Below are positions 12,485 to 32,723 of a stretch of 64,000 bases of DNA, one piece after another. The stretch is from contig CAYLLE010000004.1 of the NCBI GenBank assembly GCA_964384485.1, positions 7,379-71,378 of the forward strand, in the 5' to 3' direction. A program made the translations under genes and the position numbers. The notes below the pieces were generated by a model. That model was not told the origin of the DNA, did not search any database, and saw nothing but the letters and a program-made list of their open reading frames with translations. This DNA is from an uncultured Spirochaetales bacterium. Its GTDB lineage: Bacteria; Spirochaetota; Spirochaetia; CAYLLE01. Numbering within the stretch: the first letter of the stretch is position 1; each line of letters opens with the position of its first letter.

Positions 12485-12506
12485 CAGTAAGACGAGGAGA
12501 TCATTG

Positions 12507-13847
12507 ATGGAAACCGGGACGAGAAAGAAAAGACGACGGATGTCATACCGGGATAATGAAAACGAAAATGAACACGCGGCGATCATAGATTTTAAGATGG
12601 TAACCTTTTCTCTCGGCGGAAAAGATTACGGTATCGACATCATGAAAGTCAGCGAAATCGCAAAATTTGAGAAGTACACCTACGTTCCCAATACACTGCC
12701 TTTTGTTACCGGTGTATATAATCTGCGAAGTGATATTATCTCCCTCATCGACCTGCGCAAGATGTTTAATCTTCCCATACCTGAAAAAAACTCGGACGGG
12801 GCCGAAAACGGTTTAATTCTCCGGCTTGATAACAATATGATCGGAATCATTGTCGACTCCATCGATAAAGTAGTCGGGATCTCTTCCGAATCAATTCAGC
12901 CGCCTCATCCGATATTCGGTGATATCAATATAAAGTATATAAGCGGTGTTGTTGAAAATGACAGCCGGCTCTACATTATCCTGGACGTCGAAAAGATCTT
13001 CCAGAAAGATGAAGCACCACCTGCTCACCACGAGCCGGTAAAAGAAATTTCGGACAGTTCTCCGGCTGAACTTGGAGAACTTGAACCTTATGATTCGACG
13101 GCCCCTAGTGATCTCACTTTCGTAAAAGAGACGTTAAAAACATTTTCATCATTTTATACGACTCCAATAAATGAGCAGTGGGTAGAAGCACGGTTCAGCG
13201 AATGGTCCGAAAAGCGGCAAGAACAGAAAAGATCTGTTCAGCTGGAGAGTAAGGAAGATGGAGAAGCTTTTTTGGCACCCTTCTATTCTCCTTTTTCCGG
13301 AACTTTCTGGAACGATGAATATATTGATAAGTTTTTTTCCCTCGAAACATCAGGTTCCGCATCGAACGGGCCGGTTTTTATATGGAATCCCGGATGCGGA
13401 CAGGGTTATGAGGCCTATTCTGTTACGGCAGGTTTCCTGAAAAGAAATCCCGAAGCGAAGCTGAAAGTCTGGGCAAGTGACAATGATTTGCTCGCAATTT
13501 CTAACGCTCCGAATCTTGTCATTTCCGGTGAAGGAATGCCGGATTATCTTTCTCCCTTTGTAGCTGAAAACAAAAACGGCTTTACCCTTGGCGAAGAGCT
13601 TAAGGATCGGATTCTCTTTGAATACCACGATGTACTGCATGCCAATACAGTACCGGAAGTGGATATTATACTGTGTAGAGATCTGTTATCATTTCTAAAA
13701 CCTGAAGATCAGATGAAAATAATTGAAGAATTTGCTGAAAAGCTGAAATCCGGCGGGATACTGTGTATCGGAAACAATGAACAAGCCCCTCTGGAAGGTA
13801 TGGAGCGGGTAAACAATAGCTCCTTTTCAGCATATCGGAAACTGTAA
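12507..13847 (+). CDS. cheW: CheW domain fused to a CheR-like methyltransferase-fold domain
   Basis: The N-terminal CheW domain reads VTFSLGGKDYGIDIMKVSEI..IIVDSIDKV. The C-terminal region has a CheR-type SAM-fold signature (IWNPGCGQGYEAYS, ILCRDLLSFL). AGGAG lies 7 nt before ATG 12507. Confidence 0.8.
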   Translation: METGTRKKRRRMSYRDNENENEHAAIIDFKMVTFSLGGKDYGIDIMKVSEIAKFEKYTYVPNTLPFVTGVYNLRSDIISLIDLRKMFNLPIPEKNSDGAENGLILRLDNNMIGIIVDSIDKVVGISSESIQPPHPIFGDINIKYISGVVENDSRLYIILDVEKIFQKDEAPPAHHEPVKEISDSSPAELGELEPYDSTAPSDLTFVKETLKTFSSFYTTPINEQWVEARFSEWSEKRQEQKRSVQLESKEDGEAFLAPFYSPFSGTFWNDEYIDKFFSLETSGSASNGPVFIWNPGCGQGYEAYSVTAGFLKRNPEAKLKVWASDNDLLAISNAPNLVISGEGMPDYLSPFVAENKNGFTLGEELKDRILFEYHDVLHANTVPEVDIILCRDLLSFLKPEDQMKIIEEFAEKLKSGGILCIGNNEQAPLEGMERVNNSSFSAYRKL

Positions 13848-14863: not shown

Positions 14864-14937
14864 GGGCGGCTAGCTCAGTTGGTTAGAGCACTTGCTCGAC
14901 ACGCAAGGGGTCACTGGTTCGAATCCAGTGTCGCCCA
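14864..14937 (+). tRNA. tRNA-Val (anticodon GAC)
   Basis: Hand-folded cloverleaf: acceptor GGGCGGC/GTCGCCC (one G-U pair), D arm GCTC-AGTTGGTTA-GAGC, anticodon stem CTTGC/GCAAG with loop TCGACAC, variable loop GGGTC, T arm ACTGG-TTCGAAT-CCAGT, discriminator A. No CCA is encoded. Confidence 0.8.
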
Positions 14938-14942
14938 GCTTT

Positions 14943-14970
14943 AAGGCGCCATTAAGGCGCCTTTTCTTTT
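14943..14970 (+). terminator. rho-independent terminator after the tRNA / che operon
   Basis: AAGGCGCC (14943-14950) pairs with GGCGCCTT (14956-14963) across a 5-nt loop, followed by TTTTCTTTT. Confidence 0.7.
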
Positions 14971-15049: not shown

Positions 15050-16192
15050 ATGATTGAAATTAAGCCTGTAACTTCACGGAAACAGAAAAAGGATTTCGTC
15101 ATGTTTCCCTACCGCTTTTACCGGAAGATGAATTCTTTTCCCAATTGGGTCCCCCCGCTCCTAATGGATGAAAAAAAGATATTCCGGCCGGAAAAAGATC
15201 CGTTTTATCTCCATGCCGATATAAAACATTTTTTAGCATATGAAAACGGTGATGTAATCGGGCGGATTGCAGGTATTATTGACCATAATTACGTCTCATT
15301 CCACGGTGAAAAAACCGCTTTTTTCGGATTTTTTGAATGCAAAGATAATCAGGAAGCTGCCGCGGGTCTTGCAAAAGCGGCGGAAGAGTGGGCATTTAAT
15401 ATGGGGATGGAGAAGATGATAGGTCCGATGAATCCGAGTACCAATCACATACTGGGAGTACAGATTGACAACTTTGAAAGTCCACCGGTTATCCAGATGC
15501 CCTACAGCCCTCCGTTTTATGATTCTCTTCTGAAAGGCTGCGGATTCGAAAAAGAGAAGGATCTCTATTCATATATAATGGACACTTCCCTTCCGCTGTC
15601 CGATAAGATTGAGCGAGTTACGGAGCTGATGAAAAAGAGAAGCAAGGTTCAGCTCCGCAGAATTAACATGAAAGAATTCGATCGGCTGGGCGAAATGATC
15701 CGGGAAATCTGGAATGACGCCTGGAGTACGAACTGGGGTTTTGTCCCCTGGACCCAGGAGGAATTCAACCATTTAGCAAAAGACATGAAGCTTGTTCTTA
15801 TCCCCGATTTGGTTCTGCTGGCGGAAAACGAGGATGGTGAACCGGTAGGCTTCGCGTTTCCCATTCCCGATATCAACAGAATACTAATTAAAATGAGGGG
15901 AAGGCTTTTTCCTTTCGGCATTTTCAAACTGCTCGCGGGAAAGAACAAAATCCCGCTTCTCCGTGTGGCGGCCTTCGGGGTGAAAAAAAAGTATCAGAAT
16001 ACCGGTCTTGACGCGCTTTTCATCCATGAACTTTATACCCGGGGAGTAAAACTTGGAATAACCGGGGCCGATTTCTCCTGGATTTTGGAAGATAATCTAA
16101 ATCTGCGCAATTTACTGGAAGGATGGGGGACAACGCATTACAAAACCCATAGAATCTACGGAAAGAACCTGAACACCCTGAAAAGCGAGTAA
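15050..16192 (+). CDS. large GNAT-superfamily N-acyltransferase (about 380 aa, unknown substrate)
   Basis: It has a two-lobed GNAT-like layout (..GRIAGIIDHNY..FFGFFEC.. and a C-terminal ..VAAFGVKKKYQNTGLDALF..). AAGGAG lies before ATG 15050. It is the first gene of the lipid-like operon. Confidence 0.55.
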   Translation: MIEIKPVTSRKQKKDFVMFPYRFYRKMNSFPNWVPPLLMDEKKIFRPEKDPFYLHADIKHFLAYENGDVIGRIAGIIDHNYVSFHGEKTAFFGFFECKDNQEAAAGLAKAAEEWAFNMGMEKMIGPMNPSTNHILGVQIDNFESPPVIQMPYSPPFYDSLLKGCGFEKEKDLYSYIMDTSLPLSDKIERVTELMKKRSKVQLRRINMKEFDRLGEMIREIWNDAWSTNWGFVPWTQEEFNHLAKDMKLVLIPDLVLLAENEDGEPVGFAFPIPDINRILIKMRGRLFPFGIFKLLAGKNKIPLLRVAAFGVKKKYQNTGLDALFIHELYTRGVKLGITGADFSWILEDNLNLRNLLEGWGTTHYKTHRIYGKNLNTLKSE

Positions 16193-16195
16193 TTT

Positions 16196-17131
16196 ATGGC
16201 TAAAATATGTTTTTTATTTCCCGGTCAGGGAGCACAGTATCCCGGTATGGGAAAGGACCTTTGGGAATCCCATGGCCGGATCAAAGAGATTTTTGAAGCA
16301 GCCTCAGATATAAGCGGCAAAGATTTAAAATCCCTGATCTTCCAGGGTGACGAATCCGAATTGAAAAAAACCGAAAACACCCAGATAGCTGTAACGGCGG
16401 TAAATATTGCCGCCGCTGAAGCATCGGTTTCGGCAGGAATGATACCTCAGGGATGCGCCGGGTTCAGCTTGGGTGAATATTCAGCACTTTATCAATCAGG
16501 AGTTCTCACCTTAACTGATGTGTTCACCCTGGTACATAAAAGGGGAGAAGTGATGCAAAAAGCCTCTCGGTCTCTGGAAAATCCTGGTATGACCGCGGTT
16601 ATTGGTCTCTCCGGAGATGAAGTCGGGGAAGTCATTTCCGCGGGCGGATACAATAATGTCTTTACGGCTAATTTTAACAGTCCCATACAGACCGTTATTG
16701 CCGGAAAGGGGATCGAGCTTGACAGGATCGAAAAAGAGCTCGAAAACGCCGGGGCCATGAAGATTGTACGCCTAAAGGTTTCCGGTGCGTTTCATTCCCC
16801 CTTGATGCAGCAGGGGGCTGATGAGTTTAGGGATATTATTGCCCCGTTCCGATTTTCCGATCCGACCTTAAACCTCTATTCAAATGTTACCGGCGGAAGA
16901 ATTACATCCGGAAAAGACGCAAAGGAACTATGTGTAAAGCAGATCATTTCACCAGTGTTGTGGGTTGATGAGGAACAGTCAATTATTGATGACGGCTTTG
17001 ACTTTCCTGTGGAAACAGGTCCGGGAAAGGTACTCTGCGGGTTATGGAAGTCCTTTAACAAAAAAATCCGCTGCTATCCAGCTGGTTCCATGGATGACAT
17101 TAACGCCGCGCTCGCAATATCAGAACAGTAA
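16196..17131 (+). CDS. fabD: malonyl-CoA:ACP transacylase
   Basis: FLFPGQGAQYPGMG, the active-site GFSLGEYSAL and VSGAFHSPLM are present. Confidence 0.9.
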   Translation: MAKICFLFPGQGAQYPGMGKDLWESHGRIKEIFEAASDISGKDLKSLIFQGDESELKKTENTQIAVTAVNIAAAEASVSAGMIPQGCAGFSLGEYSALYQSGVLTLTDVFTLVHKRGEVMQKASRSLENPGMTAVIGLSGDEVGEVISAGGYNNVFTANFNSPIQTVIAGKGIELDRIEKELENAGAMKIVRLKVSGAFHSPLMQQGADEFRDIIAPFRFSDPTLNLYSNVTGGRITSGKDAKELCVKQIISPVLWVDEEQSIIDDGFDFPVETGPGKVLCGLWKSFNKKIRCYPAGSMDDINAALAISEQ

Positions 17132-17157
17132 ACATAGAGAAGGAGATTTTTGGTTAA

Positions 17158-18444
17158 ATGCAGAATCGTCGTGTAGTAATTACTGGAATGGGAACGATAA
17201 ATCCCTTAGGAGATACTTTAGAAGAGTATTATCATAATTTGATCGCAGGAAAATCCGGGATAAAGCGGTGGGAATCCATAGACATGACCGGTGTTGAATG
17301 TAAAGTTGGCGGTGACTTGGGAAATTACGATTTCCAAAAAAAACTTGATACTTTCCGGGATATAATTCCGGAAAGCAAGTACAAACAAATAAAGAAACTT
17401 TTCCGGTCCGCCACCTTCTCATCTAAAATGGCTGTACTTTGCGCCATGGACGCGTACAATGATGCCGGTCTGTTCGGGGCGGATTCGAATCCGTACGATA
17501 CCAGCGTCATGGTGGCCGGTCACAATTTTAATTCAAACTACATCTTTGAAAACGCTAAGATTTATCTTGAGGATCCCGATTTTATCGCTCCCTTGAGCGG
17601 TGTCGAAGCCATTGATCCCAATATTCCAGCCACAATTTCGGAGGTTTTAGAAGTCCAAGGACCCACATTCACCCTCGGGGGTGCATGTGCAAGCGGTAAT
17701 TTGGCTCTGCGAGCGGGATTCAGAGATATTGTCTCCGGAGAATGCGTCCGCTCAGTGGTAGCTGGCCCCCCGTTTGATGTTTCACCACCGGACATTCAGG
17801 CCTCAGTCATAATAAATGCCGTAGTTGTTAAAGAGAAATACCAGAACAATCCTGAGGGGGCTTCCCGTCCTTTTGACACGGACAGATGCGGATTTGTTTA
17901 TTCCCACGGTTCCGGGACACTCATTTTAGAGGAGCTCGAATCCGCGCTCGCGAGGGGTGCTCATATCTACGGTGAAATACTCGGTGTGACGGCAAACGCG
18001 AACGCAAATCATCTGCCCATGCCCGGAGCAGCCAACCAGCAGCAGGTCATGGAGCAGGTGCTTAAAATTTCCGGTGTAAAACCCGAACAGATCGACTATG
18101 TCAACTGTCACGCAACCGGTACTCCGTCGGGTGATCTTCAGGAAATTAAAGCGGTAAAAAATACTTTTGGCAATCACACGAAGTCCCTCTATTTGAATGC
18201 TCCGAAATCGATGCTGGGGCATACCTGCTGGGCCTCCCCCCTGGTGGAAACTATCGGGGGACTGCTGCAGATGAAACACGGGAAACTGCATCCGACCATA
18301 AACATAACGGAACAGGACCCGGAGGTTGATCTCGAGATTTGTGCCAATGCACCGGTGGAACATTCAATTCAGTACATGCTCAAGAATTCCTTCGGTTTTG
18401 GGGGAATTAACTGCTGCAGTTTGATAAAACGATTTGAGGTTTAA
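17158..18444 (+). CDS. beta-ketoacyl-ACP synthase (KAS I/II fold, divergent from FabF)
   Basis: The Cys-His-His triad is intact: GGACASGN, NCHATGTPSGD, SMLGHTCWAS. C-terminal NSFGFGGIN is present. Confidence 0.85.
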   Translation: MQNRRVVITGMGTINPLGDTLEEYYHNLIAGKSGIKRWESIDMTGVECKVGGDLGNYDFQKKLDTFRDIIPESKYKQIKKLFRSATFSSKMAVLCAMDAYNDAGLFGADSNPYDTSVMVAGHNFNSNYIFENAKIYLEDPDFIAPLSGVEAIDPNIPATISEVLEVQGPTFTLGGACASGNLALRAGFRDIVSGECVRSVVAGPPFDVSPPDIQASVIINAVVVKEKYQNNPEGASRPFDTDRCGFVYSHGSGTLILEELESALARGAHIYGEILGVTANANANHLPMPGAANQQQVMEQVLKISGVKPEQIDYVNCHATGTPSGDLQEIKAVKNTFGNHTKSLYLNAPKSMLGHTCWASPLVETIGGLLQMKHGKLHPTINITEQDPEVDLEICANAPVEHSIQYMLKNSFGFGGINCCSLIKRFEV

Positions 18445-18445
18445 T

Positions 18446-19186
18446 ATGAACATTTTAATAACCGGCGGATCCCGGGGAATAGGACGGAATCTTGTCTTGA
18501 AATTCGCCCGGGAAGGATACGGCTGCGCGTTCACCTATCGGGGTAACAAGGATAAAGCGGAAGAAACCATTGCCCTGGCTAAAGAGGCAGCTCCGGATAG
18601 GGTTATCCGAAGTTATGCCCTAGATTTAGGAAATTCCGGGGAGATCGAGAAAACAGTTGACACCGTTTTGGACGACTTTGGAGATATCCACTGCCTGGTC
18701 AATAATGCCGCCATGCTCAGAGATAACGCCGCGGCGTTTATGACCGACGATGAGTGGGAATCTGTAATCCGCACCAATTTATCCGGTCCGTTTTATATGA
18801 TCCGGTCGCTCCTGATGAACTTTGTTTCGAACAGGATGGGAAGAATAATCAACATCTCATCACTGGCCCAGGACGGCAGCAGCGGTCAGGTCAATTACGC
18901 AGCCAGTAAAGCCGGGCTCATCGGTCTGTCCAACACCATAGCCCGGGAATACGGACCGAAAAATATTACATCGAATATCGTAGTCGTGGGATATGTCCCA
19001 ACCGACATGACCAGGGACAATATGGCTCAAAGACTAAAATCTATATGGGATCAATACTGTCCTATGAAGCGGAGCGGCAAAGCATCGGAAATTTCAGGTC
19101 TGGTTCACTATCTTACAACCCCTGATGCGTCGTTTATAAACGGTGAAATTATCCATGTCTCAGGCGGTCTCACCTATGTCCCATAA
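18446..19186 (+). CDS. fabG: 3-oxoacyl-ACP reductase (classical SDR)
   Basis: ITGGSRGIGR, NNAA and the catalytic YAASKAG (YxxxK) are present. GAGG lies 7 nt before ATG 18446; the track start is 18434. Confidence 0.85.
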   Translation: MNILITGGSRGIGRNLVLKFAREGYGCAFTYRGNKDKAEETIALAKEAAPDRVIRSYALDLGNSGEIEKTVDTVLDDFGDIHCLVNNAAMLRDNAAAFMTDDEWESVIRTNLSGPFYMIRSLLMNFVSNRMGRIINISSLAQDGSSGQVNYAASKAGLIGLSNTIAREYGPKNITSNIVVVGYVPTDMTRDNMAQRLKSIWDQYCPMKRSGKASEISGLVHYLTTPDASFINGEIIHVSGGLTYVP

Positions 19187-19201
19187 AAAGGAGATGATTT
19201 A

Positions 19202-20431
19202 ATGAACACAGTAGGAATAGAAAAAATAAATCTTTATGGAAGTTCACTTTACCTTGATCAGCGTGATTTAGCTGTAGCCCGGGGACAGGAGCCTGAAAAG
19301 GTTGTCTCCGACTTCCTTATCGAATCCCGTTCGGTTAGTCCGCCTTGGGAGGACACAGTAACAATGGGAGCAAATGCCGCGTTACCCATGCTGTCAAAAC
19401 AGGATCTTGAGGACATCGGTTTGTTGGTCGTGGGAACGGAAAGTTCCCTCGATTTCGGCAAACCCGTGAGTACGAATATCCACTCCGCCCTGGGACTCCA
19501 TCCGAATGTCCGGAATTTCGAGACGAAGCATGCCTGTTACAGCGGTGTAGCGGCGCTGGATACCGCAGTAAACTGGATTGCCTCCGGTCTGAACGGCGGG
19601 AGAAAGGCACTGGTCATTTCTACCGATTTCAGCAGGATGCACCTGAATACCAAAGAAGAGTTTGTACTTGGCGGTGTTGCCGCGGCGGCACTGCTCAGTG
19701 AAACCCCTAAGGTGGTTGAATATGAGACTCAAAATAAGGGGACCTGGACCACCGACGCGTATGATACATTCCGTCCCAGCGCTTTCCATGAAATCGGGAA
19801 TAATGAGGTTAGCCTTTTCACCTATATGGACGCCTTAGAAGGAGCTTTTACTCATTATCAGGAGAGAACGGGCAATCAGTTTAACTTTGATAACGATTTC
19901 AGCAGATTAACTTACCATACCCCGTTCGCGGGTATGGCTTTTCAGGCCCACAGAACATTGTGTAATCTCACAAATCCGAGACCGAAAAAGGAAGTTAAAG
20001 AAGATTTTTCCCGCCGTGTTTATCCGGGACTTCGTTTTGCCCAGCGGGTAGGGGGAACCTACGGTGCAAGCAACTTCGTCGCGTTATGCGGTCATCTTTC
20101 GGGATCTGAACCGGTAAAACCAGGCAGCAGGATCGGATTTTTTGCCTACGGATCAGGGGCTATCGGAGAATTCTATTCCGGCACGGTATGTGAAGAAGCA
20201 GTAAATGCGGTGGCTTCCATGAATATTGATGACAAACTTGCATCCAGGCGTAACGTAACGGTGGATCAATACGAAATTCTCGAGCAGCTGAAAGAAGGGT
20301 ACATTGAGAAATCGGATTTCATTCCGCAGAAAGAGGGATTTGAAGAAGTATACCGTTCCCATTACCAAGGCACCGGGAAATTGGTGCTGAAAGGGGTGAA
20401 GGGGTTCTACAGGACGTATGAACGGGTGTAG
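19202..20431 (+). CDS. HMG-CoA synthase-family enzyme, PksG/CurD-like beta-branching HMG-ACP synthase
   Basis: The catalytic Glu/Cys/His contexts are VGTESSLDFGK, KHACYSG and YHTPFAGM. The length (409 aa) and motif order match the HCS family. Confidence 0.8.
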   Translation: MNTVGIEKINLYGSSLYLDQRDLAVARGQEPEKVVSDFLIESRSVSPPWEDTVTMGANAALPMLSKQDLEDIGLLVVGTESSLDFGKPVSTNIHSALGLHPNVRNFETKHACYSGVAALDTAVNWIASGLNGGRKALVISTDFSRMHLNTKEEFVLGGVAAAALLSETPKVVEYETQNKGTWTTDAYDTFRPSAFHEIGNNEVSLFTYMDALEGAFTHYQERTGNQFNFDNDFSRLTYHTPFAGMAFQAHRTLCNLTNPRPKKEVKEDFSRRVYPGLRFAQRVGGTYGASNFVALCGHLSGSEPVKPGSRIGFFAYGSGAIGEFYSGTVCEEAVNAVASMNIDDKLASRRNVTVDQYEILEQLKEGYIEKSDFIPQKEGFEEVYRSHYQGTGKLVLKGVKGFYRTYERV

Positions 20432-20434
20432 CTG

Positions 20435-21256
20435 ATGGACAGGGTCATTATTTCCCGGGATTCAGGAGTATGCTACATAACCCTCAATGACGGCTCTAAC
20501 GGGAACCGGCTTGACGGCCGTTTCATCAATGATATCCTTAATGGTCTTCGTGCTGCCGAATCGGACGGTTCGGTAAAAGCGGTCATGTTCCGTTCCTCGT
20601 CTCCTGTGTTTTCCCTGGGGATGAATCTGGATTTAGCTGCCAAGAAATCCGGTAAAGGAGAAACAGCTGAGACGGCAGTAAAGTCTTACGGCAGAATGCT
20701 CAGCAGGATTCGCGGTCTGGTCAAGCCGGTTTTGGCTTTGGTGGAGGGGGAGGTTAAAGCCGGCGGTGTGGGCATTGTATGTGCCTGTGACGCTGTTCTT
20801 GCGTCCGAAACGGCATCATTTGAGCTGGGGGAGGTGTTATTCGGTTTGATACCTGCCAACGTGCTGCCCTATCTCCTTTTACGGATCTCTCCGCAAAAAG
20901 CCCGGTATCTAATCATGACAGCAAAAAAAATCGACGCTGCGGAAGCCCTGGCGATCGGTTTAGCTGACGAAGTCTTTCCCGCACAAGCAGCGGAAAAGAC
21001 GGTCCGGAAAAGACTAAAAAATATATGCCGGTCATCTCCGAATGCATTAGCTGAAGTGAAACAATTTACGTCTAAGCTGCTCGATTTATCTTTTCATGAA
21101 CAGCTTGATCCGGCGGTAGAAAAGCTCACGGAGATGCTGAAAAACGAAGATATACTGGAAGGAATCAGGTCCTTTCAGTCGGGAAATCTGCCTGTCTGGT
21201 TCGGCAAGTTTTCACCGAAAGAACCAATTTCGCTACAACTGGAGGAAAAGGAATGA
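20435..21256 (+). CDS. enoyl-CoA hydratase/crotonase-fold protein (ECH1, PksH-like dehydratase candidate)
   Basis: It has a crotonase fold: VFSLGMNLD, ALVEGEVKAGGVGI, FELGEVLFGLIP. It sits directly after the HMGS homologue. Confidence 0.7.
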   Translation: MDRVIISRDSGVCYITLNDGSNGNRLDGRFINDILNGLRAAESDGSVKAVMFRSSSPVFSLGMNLDLAAKKSGKGETAETAVKSYGRMLSRIRGLVKPVLALVEGEVKAGGVGIVCACDAVLASETASFELGEVLFGLIPANVLPYLLLRISPQKARYLIMTAKKIDAAEALAIGLADEVFPAQAAEKTVRKRLKNICRSSPNALAEVKQFTSKLLDLSFHEQLDPAVEKLTEMLKNEDILEGIRSFQSGNLPVWFGKFSPKEPISLQLEEKE

Positions 21257-22002
21257 AAGAAACAATCCGTTCCGAAATGGATGAACATGGTATTGCTTAT
21301 CTGTATATGGAAGACAAAGAGGGGAAAAACATTTTTTCCGACACCTTTATAGAAGGATTCATCCGGGAAATAGAACACATCGAGACTGAACTCGAACCCT
21401 CTGTGCTCATCTTAAAAGGACTTGAAGATGTATTCTGCGGAGGAGCAGAAAAGGAAGGCCTTCTTGACCTTTGCGACGGTAAAGTTGTGGTAAAAGATCT
21501 CGTCCTCTCGGAACGGCTGATAAATACTCCGTTTCCGGTCATAGCGGCTATGGAAGGACACGCAATGGGCGGAGGATTAGTTCTGGGCCTTTGCAGCGAT
21601 ATCATTATAATGGCCCGGGAGAGCCGATACGGAGCTGTGTTCATGACTTTAGGCTTTACCCCCGGAATGGGGACAACGACGCTTCTGCCGGGACTTGTGG
21701 GACCGTATATCGCAAATGAAATGATGTTCACCGGAAAAAGGTACCGGGGTTCCGAACTTGCCGGGAAAGGTGTACCGATCAATTATATTCTCCCGAAAAA
21801 AGAAGTTGTGACAAAAGCAGAAGATATCGCCCGTCAAATCGCTGAGCGGAATAAAAAATCGGTCTATTTACTGAAATATGCTCTTAGCGCAAAAAAGAAA
21901 AAACTGCTTGTCGACGCGCGGCTGCAGGAGGATATGATGCACCGGATTTCGTTCGGATTTTCGGAAACAAAAAAAATAATAGAAGAATTTTACGCTGGAT
22001 AG
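21253..22002 (+). CDS. enoyl-CoA hydratase/isomerase-fold protein (ECH2, PksI/CurF-like decarboxylase candidate)
   Basis: AAMEGHAMGGGLVLGL, YGAVFMTLGFTPGMGTT and EMMFTG match the ECH2 signature as I recall it from PksI. The start overlaps the ECH1 stop (ATGA). Confidence 0.7.
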   Translation: MKETIRSEMDEHGIAYLYMEDKEGKNIFSDTFIEGFIREIEHIETELEPSVLILKGLEDVFCGGAEKEGLLDLCDGKVVVKDLVLSERLINTPFPVIAAMEGHAMGGGLVLGLCSDIIIMARESRYGAVFMTLGFTPGMGTTTLLPGLVGPYIANEMMFTGKRYRGSELAGKGVPINYILPKKEVVTKAEDIARQIAERNKKSVYLLKYALSAKKKKLLVDARLQEDMMHRISFGFSETKKIIEEFYAG

Positions 22003-22019
22003 AATAAGGAGTGTACCCA

Positions 22020-22832
22020 ATGATTACGATAGATTACACCGGTAAATCCGTTCTCATAACAGGCGGCACGAAAGGGATAGGGAAAGCTGCGGCATTGAAT
22101 TTCGCCAGTGCCGGAGCCAGAACGTATTTGACATACAAATGGGGATCCGCCGATGAGTCCGCCCTGTTCGATGAATTCCGTCAAACAGGAGGTCCGGAAC
22201 CGGTACTGATTCAGGCTGATGTGTCTGTTGAGGAAGATACAAAAGCGCTTTTTTCAAAGATTGCTGAAACCGAAAAAAAGCTTAACGTTTTTATAAGCAA
22301 TGTAGGCTTCGCTTCCACCCCTCAGAGTCTAAAAGATTATAAAAAGCGGTCTCTCTTCAAAACACTTGAATACAGTACCTGGCCGCTTATCGATTACACC
22401 CTCATGATAGAAAAAACTTTCAATGCCTATCCTGACTACATCCTGGGTATATCCAGTGACGGTCCCGATCATTTCTATAAAGGATACGACTACGTGGCGG
22501 CCTCAAAGGCGCTGCTTGAGTTCTTCTCGAAGTATCTGTCGGCCCATCTTTTTGATGAAAACTGCAAAGTTAATGTAATCCGTTTCGGTACAGTGAAAAC
22601 CGAGTCCTTTGACGCGGTGTTCGGTAACGATTTTTTTGAGTATCTCAAATCGGAAGGAATATCTTCTGAGAGGATCCTGACACCAGCCGAATGCGGTAAA
22701 ACAATTTTCGGAATCTGCAGCGGTTTTATGGATACCGTGAATGGACAAATAATCACCGCGGACCGGGGTATAACCTATATGGATAACACCATGAGGCGGT
22801 ATCAGCGCTGGAAAGAAGAAAAGGGACAGTAG
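22020..22832 (+). CDS. SDR-family enoyl-ACP reductase-like protein (FabL/FabI-type Y-x6-K)
   Basis: ITGGTKGIGKAAA is present. YDYVAASKALLE gives Tyr-x6-Lys, the enoyl-reductase spacing, rather than the YxxxK of ketoreductases. AAGGAG lies 8 nt before ATG 22020; the track start is GTG 22011. Confidence 0.6.
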   Translation: MITIDYTGKSVLITGGTKGIGKAAALNFASAGARTYLTYKWGSADESALFDEFRQTGGPEPVLIQADVSVEEDTKALFSKIAETEKKLNVFISNVGFASTPQSLKDYKKRSLFKTLEYSTWPLIDYTLMIEKTFNAYPDYILGISSDGPDHFYKGYDYVAASKALLEFFSKYLSAHLFDENCKVNVIRFGTVKTESFDAVFGNDFFEYLKSEGISSERILTPAECGKTIFGICSGFMDTVNGQIITADRGITYMDNTMRRYQRWKEEKGQ

Positions 22833-22856
22833 ATTCTATACAAAATCTATACATTT

Positions 22857-22938
22857 CAGCAATTTCAGGTAATGACGATTTATGTAATTGCTGGATACAG
22901 TGCTTAGAGGTTGATAGAAGCGGCAATTTACGGTATGG
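22857..22938. repeat. two REP-like units in the 169-nt intra-operon gap (site E)
   Basis: CAGCAATTTCAGGTAATG (22857-22874) and CGGCAATTTACGGTATGG (22921-22938) both match the unit consensus. TTTATGTAATTGCTGG (22879-22894) lies between them. Confidence 0.5.
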
Positions 22939-23001
22939 TACCCTCTATACCATTAAAACTGTGCCGGATAACCGGCTGCACCATTTAGAAAGGAGTGAAA
23001 A

Positions 23002-23247
23002 ATGACAAAACCTGAAGTCATGGAAGTAATCAAAAAAAATATCGTCGAAAATTTAGACGACATAGAAATGGATGATATTGATCCGAAAAAGTCTATGAAA
23101 GATTACGGAGCAAATAGTCTTGATATGATTGAGGTTGTCTCCTGTTCCATGCGGGAACTCAACATTAAAATTCCGAGATCGGAATTGGCAGATATTGCCA
23201 CAATAGACGAACTTGCCGATAAGTTCATGGAATATGTAGAAAATTAA
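23002..23247 (+). CDS. acyl carrier protein (non-housekeeping type)
   Basis: The protein is 81 aa. The phosphopantetheine site context is DYGANSLDMIEVV. A strong AAAGGAG Shine-Dalgarno is present. The sequence is unlike the canonical AcpP DLGADSLDTVELV context. Confidence 0.85.
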   Translation: MTKPEVMEVIKKNIVENLDDIEMDDIDPKKSMKDYGANSLDMIEVVSCSMRELNIKIPRSELADIATIDELADKFMEYVEN

Positions 23248-23275
23248 TCAAATTGACCGAGGTGCGGAGGATATA

Positions 23276-24532
23276 ATGTCAGATATTCTAAAATATAGCT
23301 TTGCTGATTTCCATTACAACGATAACCCTGATGTCCTGTCTCCGCCGGAAGACTTTATCAAATGGGTAAACCATCCGGCGGTTAAGAACGGTTTCAGTTT
23401 TACCGAGCAGCAGCTTCTTGCCGCACCTCGGGCACGTACCGAAATCCTGAGTAATATTGACAATCAGAAGCGGAAAATCATCAACCTTACATCGTATAAT
23501 TACCTCGGTCTTTCCACTCATCCCGAGGTTATTCAGGCCGCCAAGGAAGGTCTGGATCAGTACGGGATGGGTGCATCGGGAGCTCCCATGCTGTCCGGAA
23601 CCTTCGATCTGCATACCGAATTTGCCAGACGGCTGGCTGAATTCAAACAGAAAGAAGCGTGCCTGGTGTACTCAAGCGGTTACGGCGGCAACATCGGGGC
23701 CATTCAAGGAATAATGCGGAAAGGTGATATCCTGATCCTCGATGAGAAATGTCACGCCAGTCTGGTGGACGGGGGAACCCTGGCACAGGTGAAAATGCTT
23801 TTCTTTGAGCATAACAATCCCGAATCACTGGTCGCCATGCTGGAACGGGCGAAAGGAAAACGTGTTCTCGTTGTAGTGGAGGGAGTTTATTCCATGGATG
23901 GAGACCTGGTTAAACTTCCGGAGGTTGTCGAAATATGCGACCAATACGGAGCAGGACTCTATCTCGATGAAGCCCATTCAACACTGATGTTCGGCGAAAA
24001 CGGTAGGGGTGTGGCGGAACATTTCGGTCTGGAAGACAAAGTCGGAGTCAGCTTTGGTACACTCAGTAAGTCTTTCGGAGGTGTAGGGGGATTTATCTGC
24101 TCAAACGCCGCTCTTATTCAATACATGAAAGGGTATTCCCATCCGTGGAACTTTTCCTGTGCCATATCACCGCCGGTTGTTGCAGGGCTTATAAAAGCAC
24201 TTGAAGTTGCCACCAGGGACTCTTCTCTTCGGGATAAGCTGTGGGAAAATACAGCGTATCTTAAAAAAGGACTCACCAGTTTGAACCTCAATTTGGGAGA
24301 TACCGCATCCCAGGTCATCCCGGTTATTATCGGTCCCGACGGAACCAAACTCATGTCCTTCGCGGCGGAGATGCAGAAGCGGGGACTCTTCCTTCAGCCG
24401 GTAGACTTCCCGGCCGTACCTGCCAATGCGAGGCGGTTCAGAATATCCGTTTCTTCCCAGCTGACGAAAGAAGATATGGATACTGTTCTAAATATCATCG
24501 AGGATGTAATTGTTAAAGGTTTGAAGTCCTAA
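23276..24532 (+). CDS. alpha-oxoamine synthase (PLP-dependent acyltransferase; serine palmitoyltransferase / BioF / KBL family)
   Basis: LTSYNYLGL, SGYGGNIG, VVVEGVYSMDGD, LDEAHS and the PLP-lysine motif GTLSKSFGG are present. There is a ~60-aa N-terminal extension. Confidence 0.85.
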   Translation: MSDILKYSFADFHYNDNPDVLSPPEDFIKWVNHPAVKNGFSFTEQQLLAAPRARTEILSNIDNQKRKIINLTSYNYLGLSTHPEVIQAAKEGLDQYGMGASGAPMLSGTFDLHTEFARRLAEFKQKEACLVYSSGYGGNIGAIQGIMRKGDILILDEKCHASLVDGGTLAQVKMLFFEHNNPESLVAMLERAKGKRVLVVVEGVYSMDGDLVKLPEVVEICDQYGAGLYLDEAHSTLMFGENGRGVAEHFGLEDKVGVSFGTLSKSFGGVGGFICSNAALIQYMKGYSHPWNFSCAISPPVVAGLIKALEVATRDSSLRDKLWENTAYLKKGLTSLNLNLGDTASQVIPVIIGPDGTKLMSFAAEMQKRGLFLQPVDFPAVPANARRFRISVSSQLTKEDMDTVLNIIEDVIVKGLKS

Positions 24533-25086
24533 TGACCGATTCTTCTGAGCCTGACTATCAATCTCTTCTGAGGAAGTTTAGACGCAAGCCTCTCTTCCCG
24601 CTGGAACAGGACGACTTGTTCGTCCGGGTAGATTATTCCGGAGAAGATATAAAAAAACTAATTCCGCACCGGGATCCCTTTCTTCTGGTAGACAGAATTA
24701 CCGGTCTCGATGTAACTAACCGCCGAATTATCGGAGAAAAGCACCTCTCCCCTGCATTGCCGGTATTCCAGGGGCATTTCCCGGGATATCCGGTATATCC
24801 CGGAACTCTGGAGGTGGAGATGCTCGGTCAATTAGGTCTTTGTCTCTTCCCGTTCATCCTGAGCGGTACCACGGATATCCCGGAATTTTCTGATCAGACC
24901 GCCATCCGGGCTACCCGGATTATCGGCGCGTACTATGTAGAGCCTGTTCTGCCGGATACTACCGTGACAATACTTTCACAAGGGTATGAGTATGACGGGT
25001 ATTTCGGCAGAAGCATCGGCCAGGTTATATCCGGCGGCAAAGTCTGCTGTGTTGCCGCCGGCGAGGTTATTTTCCTAGAATCGTGA
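24532..25086 (+). CDS. FabZ/FabA-like hotdog 3-hydroxyacyl-ACP dehydratase
   Basis: IPHRDPFLLVDRI, the catalytic His in FQGHFPGYPVYPG and Glu in LEVEMLGQ are present. The start overlaps the AOS stop (TAATG). There is a ~35-aa N-terminal extension. Confidence 0.8.
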   Translation: MTDSSEPDYQSLLRKFRRKPLFPLEQDDLFVRVDYSGEDIKKLIPHRDPFLLVDRITGLDVTNRRIIGEKHLSPALPVFQGHFPGYPVYPGTLEVEMLGQLGLCLFPFILSGTTDIPEFSDQTAIRATRIIGAYYVEPVLPDTTVTILSQGYEYDGYFGRSIGQVISGGKVCCVAAGEVIFLES

Positions 25087-26319
25087 CATAATCAATACTG
25101 CATTATGGCCGCCGAATCCGAAAGAATCGGATAAAATGTGTTTTATATTTTTATCTTCCCTCGGTTCCTTGATCACATTAAGTTCAATCTTCGGGTCCTG
25201 GTTAAACTGATTTATTGTCGGATGTATGATTCCCTTCTCGAACGCCATAATCGAAGCGATGGCTTCCACACTGCTCGACGCGGCGATAAGGTGTCCGATC
25301 ATCGATTTTGTACTGTGTGCCGGACATTCGCGGATATAATCGCCGAAACTCATCTTGAGAGCCTTTGCTTCCATTTCATCACCCATAGGAGTGGAGGTGG
25401 CATGACAATTTATGAGGTCAATATCCTCCGGATTAAGCTTGGCCATATCCAAGGCCATTTTCACTGCCCGGGAGGAACCACGCGCTTCCGGATGGGGCGC
25501 AACTAAGTCATAGGCGTCGCTGGATACGCCGAAACCGGTGATCTCACAGTAGATTTTGGCACCCCTCCGTTTGGCATGTTCTAATTCTTCCAGACAAATA
25601 CAGCCGCCTCCTTCTCCCATAACAAACCCGTCCCGGTCTTTATCGAACGGCCGCGACGCTGTCTCCGGGGAATCATTCCTCGTAGACAGAGCCATTATAT
25701 TGCCGAACGCCGCAACACCTGGTCTGCACAGGGCTGCCTCAGCACCGCCCGCAATCATGGCATCGGCCATTCCGTTTTTGATAAGCATCCAGGCAAGAAA
25801 AATGGCATGGTTACTGGTGGCACAGGCTGAATTGACCGAAAATGTGGGAGCCTGCAGATTGTATTCCTGAGAAAGAAAGGCGGTGGATGTGTTCGGAATT
25901 GCGCTTACAATATAAAAGGGAGAAGCGCCGCTCATACCGGTGGTGTGTACTCTGGTGATATTATCAACATGAGCATTTACCCCGCCGGCACCGGTTCCGA
26001 TTATCGCACCATATCGTTCCGGGGCTTTATCAACATCCAATCCTGAATCTATGATCGCCTGGGCTCCCGCTACATGACCAAAAACGATATACCGGTCGAG
26101 ACGCCTCCGCATCTTCTTTGATTTGAAATACTCTGATACATCGGGTATATCAACCTCCGCCGCAATCTGAACCGAATAATCTGATAAATCGGTATTCTGA
26201 GCTATCCGAACCCCGTTTTTTCCTTTAAGGAGATTTCCCCAGAACTCTTCTACGGTATTTCCGATTGGATTTATTGTCCCAAGACCGGTTATTACAACCC
26301 GCACATCATTATTATTCAT
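25075..26319 (-). CDS. fabF: beta-ketoacyl-ACP synthase II
   Basis: These are canonical FabF motifs: NSACATSNHAI, NCHATSTPMGD, KSMIGHLIAAS, SFGFGGHNAVL. Confidence 0.92.
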   Translation of the reverse strand: MNNNDVRVVITGLGTINPIGNTVEEFWGNLLKGKNGVRIAQNTDLSDYSVQIAAEVDIPDVSEYFKSKKMRRRLDRYIVFGHVAGAQAIIDSGLDVDKAPERYGAIIGTGAGGVNAHVDNITRVHTTGMSGASPFYIVSAIPNTSTAFLSQEYNLQAPTFSVNSACATSNHAIFLAWMLIKNGMADAMIAGGAEAALCRPGVAAFGNIMALSTRNDSPETASRPFDKDRDGFVMGEGGGCICLEELEHAKRRGAKIYCEITGFGVSSDAYDLVAPHPEARGSSRAVKMALDMAKLNPEDIDLINCHATSTPMGDEMEAKALKMSFGDYIRECPAHSTKSMIGHLIAASSSVEAIASIMAFEKGIIHPTINQFNQDPKIELNVIKEPREDKNIKHILSDSFGFGGHNAVLIMSRF

Positions 26320-26644: not shown

Positions 26645-27190
26645 ATGGCCTACTTTAAATCCTACGAAGAACCTCTAAATGCTGTGATGCAGCGGATGAT
26701 ATCTAAGACATCCAGGCCAAAGATATTGGAATACGGTCCCGGCGGTTCAACCAAACTGATGATGAATACTGCCCCTGAATCTGAAATATTCTGTATAGAA
26801 CATAACCGAAAGTGGTATGAGCATTATAAAACCGAATTTGAGGAATTCTCCCCCAATAAACCCGATCTCCATTATATTCCGCTCAAGGAGAATTATGTAA
26901 CTCTGTCGCGAGAAAAATTTGATCCCCGATCTCTTGATTTGATCTACGTGGACGGCCGGAAAAGAGTTGCCTGCCTCGACTTAGCAAAAACACTTATCAA
27001 ACAGGAAGACGGAATTATCGTTCTGCATGATGCCGAGCGTCCCCGTTACCGGAAGGGACACAAGGAATGGCCTTTGGATAAGAAAATATGGGCCGGTCCG
27101 AAAGGGAGCCGGACATTGATCCTGGTTACCGACCCCAAAGATTATGAAGCACTAATCCACCTGGAGACGGAGCCTCCAAACCGGCGGTGA
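26645..27190 (+). CDS. class I SAM-dependent methyltransferase-like protein
   Basis: ILEYGPGGST (motif I-like), IYVDGRKR and IIVLHDAERP resemble small O-methyltransferase-fold proteins. The call is weak. Confidence 0.4.
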   Translation: MAYFKSYEEPLNAVMQRMISKTSRPKILEYGPGGSTKLMMNTAPESEIFCIEHNRKWYEHYKTEFEEFSPNKPDLHYIPLKENYVTLSREKFDPRSLDLIYVDGRKRVACLDLAKTLIKQEDGIIVLHDAERPRYRKGHKEWPLDKKIWAGPKGSRTLILVTDPKDYEALIHLETEPPNRR

Positions 27191-27191
27191 C

Positions 27192-27284
27192 CAGTAATTC
27201 CCGGTCAACCCGATTGATGTAATTGTGTGCAATAAACAAATTATAAATTTAAACGCGGTTGTGATCACCGGAAATTGCCGTTTT
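27192..27284. repeat. REP-like inverted pair between convergent genes (site B)
   Basis: CAGTAATTCCCGGTCAAC (27192-27209) and GATCACCGGAAATTGCCG (27263-27280, inverted) flank a 53-nt AT-rich spacer. The left arm starts 2 nt after the methyltransferase stop. The right arm contains the stop and last codons of the gene at 27265..28281. Confidence 0.8.
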
Positions 27285-28281
27285 CGGCCAGAAACGCTTT
27301 AATTGTTGTTTTAAAACCGGTCCGGTAGTCCGTCCCGGGCCGAAAACTCAACAGCTCTTCTGCCTTGGAGATATCAAAATGGAAATCATGGGTCACGTGA
27401 TCAACCCGGTATTTGGTTAAGGGCGGTTCTCCTTTTATTCCGAAAAGCCGGTAGGAGTTCTCCATTACATACGCGGCAATGCCTGCGGGTAAGGGGGGAA
27501 GAGGGAAACGGATCGGATCGATACCCAGCAGAGAAGCACAGTAATACAGAATGTCTCTCCACGTTACCCATTCTCCTCCCGTAATATTGAATATTTCCCC
27601 GATACACCGGGGATTTTTCAGCGCGAGGATTACCGAATCGGCAAAATCATCCACATATACCGGACAGGTAAGCTTTTTCCCGCTGCCTATTACGGGCATG
27701 ATGCCCTGGAGCATGGCATCAAACATATTATAGAATGTGGTCCTGTCTCCCGGTCCGTACACATTTCCCGGACGCAGAACCGTGGTTTGGAGATCATCCG
27801 AACCGTTTTGCACCACCATGTTTTCCGCTTCAAGTTTCGTCCGCTGATACGCCGACACCAGGGGGTAGTAGGGGCCATTCTCGGTAGAATTTCTGTGATG
27901 CCCGAAACCGTGCACGGAAATTGAACTTATGTAAATAAATCTTCCAATGGATAAACTGCCGGCCCAGCGTAAAAGATGGTCCGTAAGTTCAGCATTCGCC
28001 CTCCTGAACTCCTGCTCACTTCCCCAATCGCCCACCTTTCCGGCGGCATGAATAACCGCACCGCATCCTTTAAGGGCTTTCTCGGTATCATCTCCCTGCT
28101 CCAAAGAGGTCCGCATCACTTCATGTCCCATGGCGGAAAGCTCGGATAATTCCCGGGGCGGATTTTCCCGCCGGAATAAGCATCGGACAGTATATCCCGA
28201 TTGAGCTAATTTCCAGGCAATTCTTCTTCCGATGAATCCGGATGCTCCGGTTACTGCTACCGTGTTTTCAGAGTTTTTCAT
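27265..28281 (-). CDS. NAD(P)-dependent epimerase/dehydratase-fold (3-beta-HSD-like) reductase
   Basis: VAVTGASGFIGRRI is the Rossmann motif and SAYQRTKLEAE the catalytic YxxxK. Confidence 0.8.
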   Translation of the reverse strand: MKNSENTVAVTGASGFIGRRIAWKLAQSGYTVRCLFRRENPPRELSELSAMGHEVMRTSLEQGDDTEKALKGCGAVIHAAGKVGDWGSEQEFRRANAELTDHLLRWAGSLSIGRFIYISSISVHGFGHHRNSTENGPYYPLVSAYQRTKLEAENMVVQNGSDDLQTTVLRPGNVYGPGDRTTFYNMFDAMLQGIMPVIGSGKKLTCPVYVDDFADSVILALKNPRCIGEIFNITGGEWVTWRDILYYCASLLGIDPIRFPLPPLPAGIAAYVMENSYRLFGIKGEPPLTKYRVDHVTHDFHFDISKAEELLSFRPGTDYRTGFKTTIKAFLAENGNFR

Positions 28282-32688: not shown

Positions 32689-32723
32689 CACATGCCCCCT
32701 AATAAAGTTAAAAATACAGATTA

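Follow-up and report, generated by a model that had tools for sequence, protein, structure and literature searches.

Why should a spirochaete carry, among genes for fatty acid synthesis, a set of enzymes so far tied to β-branching in modular polyketide synthases (PKS)? The question is raised by a 64,000-nucleotide stretch of DNA from an uncultured Spirochaetales bacterium (assembly GCA_964384485.1, contig CAYLLE010000004.1, positions 7,379 to 71,378), hereafter the window. The stretch resembles a chromosomal segment of a free-living spirochaete, with genes for FlaA, a cheA/cheW-cheR/cheX/cheY operon, a V-type ATPase, ispG and ispH, and none of its scanned open reading frames (ORFs) is a PKS gene. 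The original prediction made from this DNA had singled out four consecutive genes at 19202-22832, encoding a 3-hydroxy-3-methylglutaryl (HMG) synthase (HMGS), two enoyl-CoA hydratase homologues (ECH1 and ECH2) and a short-chain dehydrogenase/reductase (SDR) with a Y-x6-K motif, as a possible route to isovaleryl groups bound to acyl carrier protein (ACP). The four ORFs are all in place and belong to the families proposed; the matches are not fortuitous, since their E-values range from 1e-14 to 1e-78 and the gene order is kept in dozens of genomes. The best explanation that we find for the four genes is that they would form the branching part of a self-contained, ACP-tethered branched-chain fatty acid synthase (FAS) feeding a ceramide pathway. 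That the cassette and a type II FAS jointly make a methyl-branched acyl-ACP for a ceramide seems to us very probable; that the branch arises at the C4 stage, through isovaleryl-ACP, is an even bet.

The HMGS cassette and its fatty acid synthase partners

The four genes lie within a single, tightly packed plus-strand operon (15050-25086) whose order is N-acyltransferase, FabD, ketosynthase (KS1), FabG-like reductase, HMGS, ECH1, ECH2, SDR, ACP, α-oxoamine synthase and FabZ-like dehydratase. Gaps or overlaps between genes do not exceed 28 nt, the exception being an interval of 169 nt before the ACP gene. On the upstream side, a plus-strand element at 14864-14963, consisting of a tRNA gene (14864-14937; Rfam, 64.9 bits) and a terminator-like GC-rich hairpin followed by a T-run (14943-14963), probably marks the operon boundary. 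Because of this boundary and the close gene spacing, the enzyme genes are predicted to be co-transcribed. The same element separates the lipid operon from the chemotaxis operon. Genes for FabF, an epimerase-family reductase, a CPBP membrane protein and a GT28-type glycosyltransferase lie on the minus strand, convergent with the operon.

The HMGS gene (19202-20431, plus strand) specifies a protein with the Pfam HMG_CoA_synt_N and HMG_CoA_synt_C domains. Its best solved relatives are CurD (5KP5, 249 bits), with which it aligns end to end, including a C-terminal LVLK..K.F.R.YE stretch, and PksG (4YXQ, 234 bits). These are HMGS enzymes of the HMG-CoA synthase (HCS) cassettes that serve PKS. The lead over the MvaS protein of Myxococcus xanthus (222 bits) is modest, and the MvaS proteins of Staphylococcus and Enterococcus score 177 bits or less. 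Against the HMG-CoA synthase equivalog TIGR01835 the protein reaches 261 bits, under the trusted cut-off of 360. The Glu/Cys/His catalytic set is present, and overall the enzyme lies nearer to the ACP-dependent HCS enzymes than to the HMG-CoA synthases, by the modest margin over MvaS just mentioned; its identity to plasmid-borne PKS-type HMGS is only 35-39%. A search with HMGS yielded 80 loci, and the gene counts given below refer to those with at least 7 kb of flanking sequence on both sides (16 from Myxococcota, 24 from Spirochaetota). Most of these 80 relatives have the motifs around the catalytic Glu, Cys and His (GTESS.D, KHACYSG and YHTPF), which in their strict form are missed in 31, 2 and 5 cases, respectively. 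A role of HMGS in mevalonate synthesis was considered and is ruled out by the ispG and ispH genes of the methylerythritol phosphate (MEP) pathway in the window and by the PksI-type ECH2.

ECH1 (20435-21256, plus strand) is the predicted dehydratase converting HMG-ACP to 3-methylglutaconyl-ACP. Its best NCBIfam match is PRK07112, the model for enzymes like PksH, and its sequence shows the two Glu residues of crotonases. The best solved relatives, AtuE (4ZU2) and PksH (3HP0), act on substrates of the methylglutaconyl type. ECH2 (21253-22002, plus strand) is a decarboxylase of the PksI/CurF type by its score against PRK07110, the PksI-type model (272 bits against a cut-off of 215), and by its similarity to PksI (4Q1G, 5e-44) and to the ECH2 of CurF (1.5e-39). 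The His of its MMHR motif is aligned with that of MMHE in PksI, and we take it as the putative catalytic residue. Family matches and aligned residues thus identify the ECH1-ECH2 pair that is typical of HCS cassettes.

The fourth gene (22011-22832, plus strand) specifies an SDR for which FabL is both the best NCBIfam match and the best solved relative. Its YDYVAASK motif aligns onto the Y-x6-K of FabL (3OIC), and the classical K-4 position is not occupied by Tyr. The same holds among about 90 homologues, all but three of which show the pattern Y-[DE]-[YF]-x-A-x-x-K and none a Tyr at K-4. The original prediction would have fallen had the protein been a ketoreductase; by sequence it is FabL-like, and a separate FabG is encoded in the same operon. 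The enoyl-reductase assignment is therefore well supported at the level of sequence. Scores far under the equivalog cut-offs (97 against 328 bits for FabL, 65 against 391 for FabI) suggest a distant clade, separate from both. In Spirochaetota and Myxococcota the reductase gene directly follows that of ECH2; in Bacteroidota the two are again co-oriented, ECH2 and one reductase gene forming a divergent pair of their own. Spirochaetota have a single copy, Myxococcota and Bacteroidota two paralogues, so that the gene is duplicated where the cluster is without FabF. A neighbour-joining tree left open which of the paralogues matches the single Spirochaetota copy.

The surrounding genes supply the parts of a type II FAS. 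FabD, the malonyl-CoA:ACP transacylase that the original prediction had placed at the head of the route (16196-17131, plus strand), passes the TIGR00128 cut-off (262.3 against 260.9 bits). KS1 (17158-18444, plus strand) is a relative of the KS0 of HCS cassettes, its score being highest against the PksF-type model PRK07103 (314.6 bits, compared to 306 for FabF). Its active-site stretch reads TLGGACASGNLA against TLGGASASGQLA in the thiomarinol KS0, the motif FTLGGA-x-ASG-x-LA being common to both, with Cys (TLGGACASG) in the former and Ser (TLGGASASG) in the latter. The Cys-His-His triad ascribed to this enzyme at the outset is indeed there, and is kept in 62 of 64 KS1 homologues. In canonical cassettes KS0 is condensation-inactive and only decarboxylates malonyl-ACP (PMC10006238, PMC12560621); KS1, with its Cys kept, should not share this property of the cassette enzyme. 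Since the condensing Cys, lost in genuine KS0, is retained, KS1 can plausibly make both acetyl-ACP and acetoacetyl-ACP. The FabG-like 3-ketoacyl-ACP reductase (18434-19186, plus strand) has the Y-x3-K spacing, with TIGR01830 as top match (221.8 bits; cut-off, 297.75), and all 72 homologues have the motif Y-x-[AST]-[ASG]-K, in most cases as YAASK or YAAAK. The FabZ-like, also ApeI-like, 3-hydroxyacyl-ACP dehydratase (24532-25086, plus strand) matches Pfam FabA and, in a precomputed Pfam assignment, the ApeI-like family; it carries the motifs IPHRDPFLLVDR and GHFPGYPVYPG and scores 68-71 bits against FabZ models, under their cut-off. Finally, FabF (KS2; 25075-26319, minus strand) exceeds its TIGR03150 cut-off (497.1 against 493.75 bits). 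It adjoins the cluster in 16 of 24 Spirochaetota loci and is absent from those of Myxococcota and Bacteroidota. The FabF, FabG and FabZ genes credited with chain extension were thus all recovered.

The ACP (23002-23247, plus strand) carries a GANSLD motif, with no Trp, and most resembles AcpK, the donor ACP of HCS cassettes: PRK07117 is its best match, though below cut-off (61 against 79 bits), and it is 33% identical to AcpK of B. velezensis, compared to 25% over 48 residues for AcpR. FabD is encoded in the same operon, and the protein may act as donor, as acceptor or as both. Both KS1 and this protein appear to descend from the KS0 and donor ACP of a cassette, a point that the original prediction had missed. 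No second ACP gene was found in the window cluster; the small ORFs found upstream of the gene for the serine palmitoyltransferase (SPT)-like enzyme in Myxococcota loci were considered for this role and are not ACP-like.

As for the enzymes that might prime the system, the absence of FabH and of a branched-chain keto-acid dehydrogenase (BCKDH) from the cluster, noted originally, extends to the large ORFs scanned throughout the window, a scan from which about a dozen ORFs of 120-290 aa were left out. The cluster likewise lacks an AMP-ligase gene for an AasR-type acyl-ACP synthetase. Homology searches of related loci with the proteins of the window cluster, and Pfam scans of selected unmatched ORFs, disclosed no FabH, acyl-ACP synthetase or CoA ligase; nor was a PKS gene seen in these loci, where the search used only the window proteins and a few Pfam spot checks.

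Ceramide genes and distribution of the module

The remaining genes of the operon and its surroundings point to the fate of the acyl chain. The first operon gene (15050-16192, plus strand) encodes a GNAT-like N-acyltransferase of 380 aa with a weak Pfam GNAT match. Its relatives in the large protein database are named only "GNAT" or "hypothetical", and its identity was settled by direct comparison with YghO of E. coli BL21 (33% identity over the full length, 380 against 380 aa; E = 8e-67). It thus belongs with the YghO/aca (bCerS) proteins, and the clusters of Myxococcota and Bacteroidota have homologues as well. YghO corresponds to CC_1154 of Caulobacter, a protein needed for dihydroceramide synthesis (PMC9386255). 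The α-oxoamine synthase (23276-24532, plus strand) is SPT-like: its best solved relative is the bona fide SPT of Sphingobacterium (3A2B, 2e-75), and it is 33% identical to Spt of E. coli BL21. An NAD-dependent epimerase-family reductase (27265-28281, minus strand) is a homologue of epi/CerR (29% identity to BL21 epi, E = 4e-26), its top NCBIfam match being an OleD-type 3-oxo reductase; a gene of this kind is found within 10 kb of the cluster in 3 of 24 Spirochaetota and 8 of 16 Myxococcota loci. A GT28/MGDG-synthase-like glycosyltransferase (29054-30220, minus strand), 78% identical to its counterpart in the related locus L001, is a possible head-group transferase. Given the Spt-like, YghO/bCerS and CerR homologues, the operon reads as a ceramide cluster, an aspect overlooked in the original prediction, and one in which the type II FAS and the HMGS cassette would replace the usual acyl-ACP synthetase.

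The nearest relatives of the locus are in metagenome-assembled genomes (MAGs) of Spirochaetales, and a protein identical to HMGS residue for residue is encoded on contig JBKHBW010000016.1 of assembly GCA_046542195.1. Beyond these, the core module is kept in Spirochaetota, in Nannocystineae (Myxococcota) and in Bacteroidota, and it also occurs without sphingolipid genes. Among Myxococcota (Nannocystis, Enhygromyxa, Plesiocystis and MAGs), FabD, dehydratase, KS1, FabG, HMGS, ECH1, ECH2 and reductase are present in 16 of 16 loci, the ACP in 15, two reductase paralogues in 14 and the SPT-like gene in 13. In Spirochaetota, KS1, FabG, HMGS, ECH1, ECH2, reductase, ACP, SPT and dehydratase occur all together in 17 of 24 loci, and FabD and the N-acyltransferase were found beside only 8 of the 24. 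Within Spirochaetota the spread of the cluster is wide and vertical-looking, at identities of 58-86%. The Bacteroidota loci, including that of a Chitinophaga pinensis MAG, have the same genes as the other phyla. Single loci came from Latescibacterota, from FCPU426 and from a MAG of Hyphomicrobiales; as in Spirochaetota, the Latescibacterota and FCPU426 versions have two KS genes. The Chitinophaga locus (L079) includes genes for a protein of PAP2_3, a family of head-group transferases and phosphatases, and, after the SPT-like gene, for an extra classical SDR (1488-2408 and 12351-13136). In the Hyphomicrobiales locus (L068, 14628-15269) the cluster is adjoined by a gene for an Sfp-type phosphopantetheinyl transferase.

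Two loci from deltaproteobacterial/Myxococcota MAGs (L037, 3775-14001; L038, 5885-15883) are particularly informative about the autonomy of the module. Both read FabD-dehydratase-KS1-FabG-HMGS-ECH1-ECH2-reductase-ACP-reductase, with no SPT gene within 10 kb. The gene that follows the module encodes a hydrolase of the metallo-β-lactamase (MBL) fold, a possible thioesterase that could release the branched fatty acid in free form. Since such stand-alone versions exist without SPT, the module would appear to be an independent unit, a synthase of branched acyl-ACP making the complete acyl chain. FabG and the dehydratase are kept everywhere, the loci without an SPT gene included, which points to at least one ordinary reductive cycle on the same ACP. 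Reduced sets are also found: KS1-FabG-HMGS-ECH1-ECH2 alone on a spirochaete chromosome (L021), and otherwise (L029, L030-L033, e.g. Candidatus Haliotispira prima, L031, 9989-12116) HMGS and ECH1 only, or these with ECH2 or with KS1 and FabG. They have no ACP, reductase or SPT gene nearby. For L030-L033 a context like that of the alternative isovaleryl-CoA biosynthesis (AIB) pathway was considered; the neighbours (ABC transporters, a diacylglycerol kinase, a nitroreductase and an HAD hydrolase) are uninformative.

The proposed route and its rivals

In the route that we favour, FabD would load malonate onto the single AcpK-like ACP. KS1 would decarboxylate some of the malonyl-ACP to acetyl-ACP and condense acetyl and malonyl-ACP to acetoacetyl-ACP, to which HMGS would add the acetyl group of acetyl-ACP. 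The resulting HMG-ACP would be dehydrated by ECH1 to 3-methylglutaconyl-ACP, this decarboxylated by ECH2 to 3-methylcrotonyl-ACP, and the latter saturated by the FabL-like reductase to isovaleryl-ACP. Elongation to an iso-odd acyl-ACP would engage KS1 and/or FabF, FabG, the FabZ-like dehydratase and the same reductase. The SPT-like enzyme would then condense this product with serine and the YghO/bCerS homologue would N-acylate the condensation product; reduction at the 3-keto position would fall to the CerR-like reductase, and a sugar may be attached by the glycosyltransferase. The identity of the enzymes, the integrity of their catalytic sites, their location in one operon and the conservation of the set across phyla can be regarded as established from the sequences; the order of the reactions, and the length of the chain when HMGS acts on it, we infer.

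Several lines of reasoning lead to this scheme. Initiation would be from malonyl-ACP alone because FabD is present and FabH, acyl-ACP synthetase and CoA ligase are not. With a de novo start from malonyl units, acetoacetyl-ACP would be the first β-keto intermediate and thus the first substrate available to HMGS. Both a FabD without a priming enzyme and a module able to stand alone fit such a start. Branching at the C4 stage is further favoured because CurD, the best solved relative of HMGS, reportedly acts on acetoacetyl-ACP, the ancestral substrate of these enzymes; because FabG and the dehydratase are never lost, so that ordinary reductive cycles would follow on the same ACP; and because the reductase always lies beside ECH2 and is duplicated in clusters without FabF. 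Two paralogues are as expected if reduction of the branch and elongation of the chain were separate tasks. The C4-stage reading, partly supported in this manner, is chemically coherent and the most parsimonious for the gene content. Of the isovaleryl-ACP route as originally predicted, what has stood is that every enzyme needed is present, intact and in one operon; the chain length that it implies for the HMGS stage is not fixed by the sequence. The full proposal is that a Cys-retaining KS0 descendant supplies acetyl- and acetoacetyl-ACP on one AcpK-like carrier and an FabL-like SDR reduces 3-methylcrotonyl-ACP, so that isovaleryl-ACP is formed by self-priming, independently of FabH and leucine, and feeds a dedicated type II FAS for the iso-branched long-chain bases of ceramides in Spirochaetota, Nannocystineae and Bacteroidota. 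We advance it tentatively, placing its chances somewhat short of even.

A number of points weigh against this proposal. No feature of the HMGS sequence appears to fix the length of the acceptor chain, and we know of no residue-level predictor of it; PKS-type HMGS enzymes take long β-ketoacyl-ACPs. Canonical cassettes use separate donor and acceptor ACPs, and there is a single ACP here. We are also aware of no precedent for the reduction of a β,β-disubstituted enoyl thioester by an SDR of the FabL/FabI type; AibC and the enoyl reductase (ER) of CurF belong to the medium-chain dehydrogenase/reductase (MDR) class, not to the SDRs. The SPT-like enzyme, for which serine is a presumed substrate, reaches 262-319 bits against NCBIfam SPT models, under their cut-offs of 500-670. 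Nannocystineae and Bacteroidota normally take their iso-primers from leucine, so that an additional isovaleryl route would be redundant there. A β,γ product of ECH2 could not be reduced, and ECH2 enzymes yield either regiochemistry, with determinants that are unknown (PMC11350588). The Trp flag of acceptor ACPs, which is not universal (PMC10006238), is absent from the cluster ACP.

The main rival reading places the methyl group within the chain or close to the head group. KS1 would in that case extend a pre-formed chain, drawn from the housekeeping acyl-ACPs or assembled on the cluster ACP, and HMGS would act on a longer 3-oxoacyl-ACP; the 3-methylacyl-ACP would undergo at least one ordinary cycle before SPT, giving a long-chain base with an internal methyl rather than an iso terminus. 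A different branch position would better explain why the module is retained by its carriers in Myxococcota and Bacteroidota, which can make iso-primers by other routes. Since KS enzymes of the FabF type accept acyl-ACPs as primers, cross-talk with the housekeeping pool is possible, and where there are two KS genes (Spirochaetota, Latescibacterota and FCPU426) one could serve the condensation before branching. All characterised relatives of the cassette, moreover, modify growing chains internally (PMC12560621; PMC10006238). Such a scheme needs a chain-length-specific HMGS in an iterative system and the import of acyl primers, however, and no loading enzyme was found, spot Pfam scans included. 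The FabD present in all 16 Myxococcota modules, and the completeness of the module for de novo synthesis, fit a de novo start better. A strict version with one round of extension is excluded by the retention of FabG and dehydratase everywhere, even in loci without SPT. We consider an internal methyl unlikely, while regarding it as a serious contender. It is improbable, in our judgement, that the chain remains unsaturated or is branched repeatedly. The former would result if ECH2 left a β,γ or otherwise unreduced olefin (an isopropenyl or isobutenyl terminus), as the variable regiochemistry of these enzymes allows, with the FabL-like enzyme acting only in ordinary cycles, for which the one reductase of Spirochaetota is needed anyway. 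The latter would result if the cassette worked in more than one cycle; alternation with ordinary cycles would put a methyl on every fourth carbon of a multi-methyl, isoprenoid-like chain. Against the first alternative, the genes for the reductase and ECH2 stay together in each of the three phyla, the divergent pair of Bacteroidota being a case in point, and the second paralogue of Myxococcota and Bacteroidota suggests that one reductase is reserved for the branch; nothing speaks in favour of iterative use of the cassette.

Doubts may also be raised about the end product and the carrier. The α-oxoamine synthase lies under every NCBIfam SPT cut-off and scores highest on a generic BioF/Kbl subfamily model, and HCS cassettes are otherwise characteristic of secondary metabolism (10.1101/509463). 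The synthase might thus use, for example, glycine, alanine or cysteate, and the product be a secreted amino-lipid or polyketide-like secondary metabolite rather than a membrane sphingolipid. This we hold to be quite improbable: the cluster includes a full-length YghO/CC_1154 homologue, an epi/CerR homologue and a lipid-type glycosyltransferase, the Chitinophaga version adds a PAP2_3 head-group-type enzyme, the synthase's best solved relative is a true SPT, and the vertical-looking spread in Spirochaetota suggests a core lipid. That HMGS, ECH1 and ECH2 act on CoA thioesters in mevalonate, leucine or AIB-like metabolism, and neighbour the fatty acid genes by chance, is suggested by the near-equality of M. 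xanthus MvaS and PksG in the HMGS comparison (222 and 234 bits) and by the HMGS-ECH1 pairs of some Spirochaetia (L030-L033) with no ACP or KS nearby. The HMGS protein nonetheless fails to reach the TIGR01835 cut-off, and CurD is the only protein with which its alignment runs from end to end; ECH2 scores above the threshold for the PksI family, in which substrates bound to ACP are preferred (PMC11350588). The cluster has no AibA/B-like or MDR reductase genes, the window contains genes of the MEP pathway, and the tight synteny with KS, ACP and FabD is kept across phyla. A CoA-level function appears extremely improbable.

Known systems, implications and neighbouring genes

Set beside the HCS cassettes of trans-AT and cyanobacterial PKS, those of bacillaene (PksC/AcpK/PksF/G/H/I), curacin (CurB-F) and mupirocin/thiomarinol, the module shows the same families in the same roles: an acyltransferase, an AcpK-like ACP, a cassette-type KS, a CurD/PksG-like HMGS, a PksH-like ECH1 and a PksI/CurF-like ECH2. 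The curacin cassette likewise acts on acetoacetyl-ACP to shape a starter unit, coupled to an enoyl reductase. The differences are that these cassettes serve modular PKS, whereas the module forms part of a type II FAS and ceramide operon; that they have separate donor and acceptor ACPs, in contrast to one free-standing ACP with no Trp flag; that their KS is a KS0, which KS1, with its catalytic Cys, is not; and that their ER is an MDR domain instead of a FabL-like SDR. Nothing in the cluster points to action in trans on the acceptor ACP of a modular PKS, since no PKS was seen and the ACP has no Trp. Thus, the module seems to hold homologues of every cassette part but to lack two defining features, the inactive KS0 and the action in trans on a PKS acceptor ACP.

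The same chemistry at the CoA level had been cited from myxobacteria, and the literature bears this out: the AIB pathway of Myxococcus xanthus employs MvaS, LiuC, AibA/AibB and AibC (PMC5389471). Acetyl and acetoacetyl thioesters are converted there, as proposed for the module, to HMG, 3-methylglutaconyl, 3,3-dimethylacrylyl and isovaleryl thioesters, and the HMGS and ECH1/LiuC enzymes are homologous. The carrier in AIB is CoA, whereas in the module it would be ACP. The decarboxylase is the CoA-transferase-like AibA/B in the one and a crotonase-fold ECH2 in the other; the reductase is the dehydrogenase AibC, an MDR enzyme, as opposed to an SDR; and acetoacetyl groups come from a thiolase, as opposed to a KS. 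A Pfam scan found no AibA/B-like or MDR reductase genes in the cluster, the crotonase ECH2 and the SDR standing in their place. The canonical pathway with FabH and BCKDH gives the same class of product, iso-odd acyl chains from an isovaleryl primer, but takes the primer from leucine, whereas the module would derive it from three malonyl/acetyl units.

Ceramide synthesis in Caulobacter and E. coli BL21 involves Spt, AcpR, AasR, epi/CerR and aca/bCerS, with a dedicated ACP charged by an acyl-ACP synthetase (PMC9386255, PMC11087976). The cluster encodes homologues of three of these proteins, at identities of 33% for Spt, 33% over the full length for YghO/aca and 29% for epi, by which it would belong to this Spt/bCerS/CerR pathway; in both systems the gene for a dedicated ACP lies beside that for SPT. 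Where AasR loads a ready-made fatty acid, however, the cluster is without this rhodobacterial-type synthetase, and FAS II and the HCS cassette would build the chain on the ACP. The latter is AcpK-like instead of AcpR, and the SPT is nearer to the Bacteroidota/delta-proteobacterial type (3A2B) than to that of Caulobacter and E. coli BL21.

An ACP-tethered version built from an HCS cassette had been expected to be new. In keeping with this, we found no description, in the full-text literature searched, of an HMGS cassette joined to type II FAS or sphingolipid genes, the closest approach being a remark on a small number of HCS genes that accompany orphan type II PKS clusters (10.1101/509463); nor was a report of sphingolipids in Spirochaetota found. 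If the interpretation is correct, an HCS cassette would for the first time be seen to serve the synthesis of membrane lipids and not of polyketides, and a β-branching device so far tied to modular PKS would enter primary-type lipid metabolism. Sphingolipids would be predicted for free-living Spirochaetota, and bacterial SPT would have a third acyl supply, a chain built on a dedicated ACP, besides acyl-CoA and synthetase-charged ACP. Methyl-branched, probably iso, chains would have a source in acetate only, independent of branched-chain amino acids. The interpretation of isotope and lipid biomarkers where branched lipids from peat, soil or sediment are concerned would be affected, these being habitats to which the names of many carrier MAGs point. 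For the engineering of branched fatty acids, both the KS0 relative with its Cys and the FabL-like branch reductase would offer useful parts. The existence of cultured carriers (Nannocystis, Enhygromyxa salina and Plesiocystis pacifica) makes the idea directly testable.

The cluster and its surroundings also include genes of less evident connection. A small conserved ORF of 181 aa inside the cluster (26645-27190, plus strand; 67% identity in L001) gives a weak Methyltransf_24 match only and none in NCBIfam. A CPBP/Rce1-like membrane protein (28286-29038, minus strand) is encoded next to the CerR-like reductase, as it is in L001 and L066. Directly beside the lipid cluster lie ilvB and ilvN (30470-32691, minus strand), for the large and small subunits of acetolactate synthase, the enzyme of the first step of branched-chain amino acid synthesis; this adjacency may be a coincidence or a link to branched primers. 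Elsewhere in the window, three ORFs, at 57911-61282 (1123 aa), 7960-8844 and 8846-10015 (both minus strand; 294 and 389 aa), match no Pfam family at the thresholds used. The cheA/cheX/cheY operon contains a CheW-CheR fusion, a single protein of 447 aa (12504-13847). Upstream of genes for an amidase and FlaA, the segment 866-4841 encodes a cytidylyltransferase, a protein of 594 aa that ends in a methyltransferase domain and an ATP-grasp protein resembling L-amino-acid ligases, a group that may constitute a sugar or flagellin modification set.

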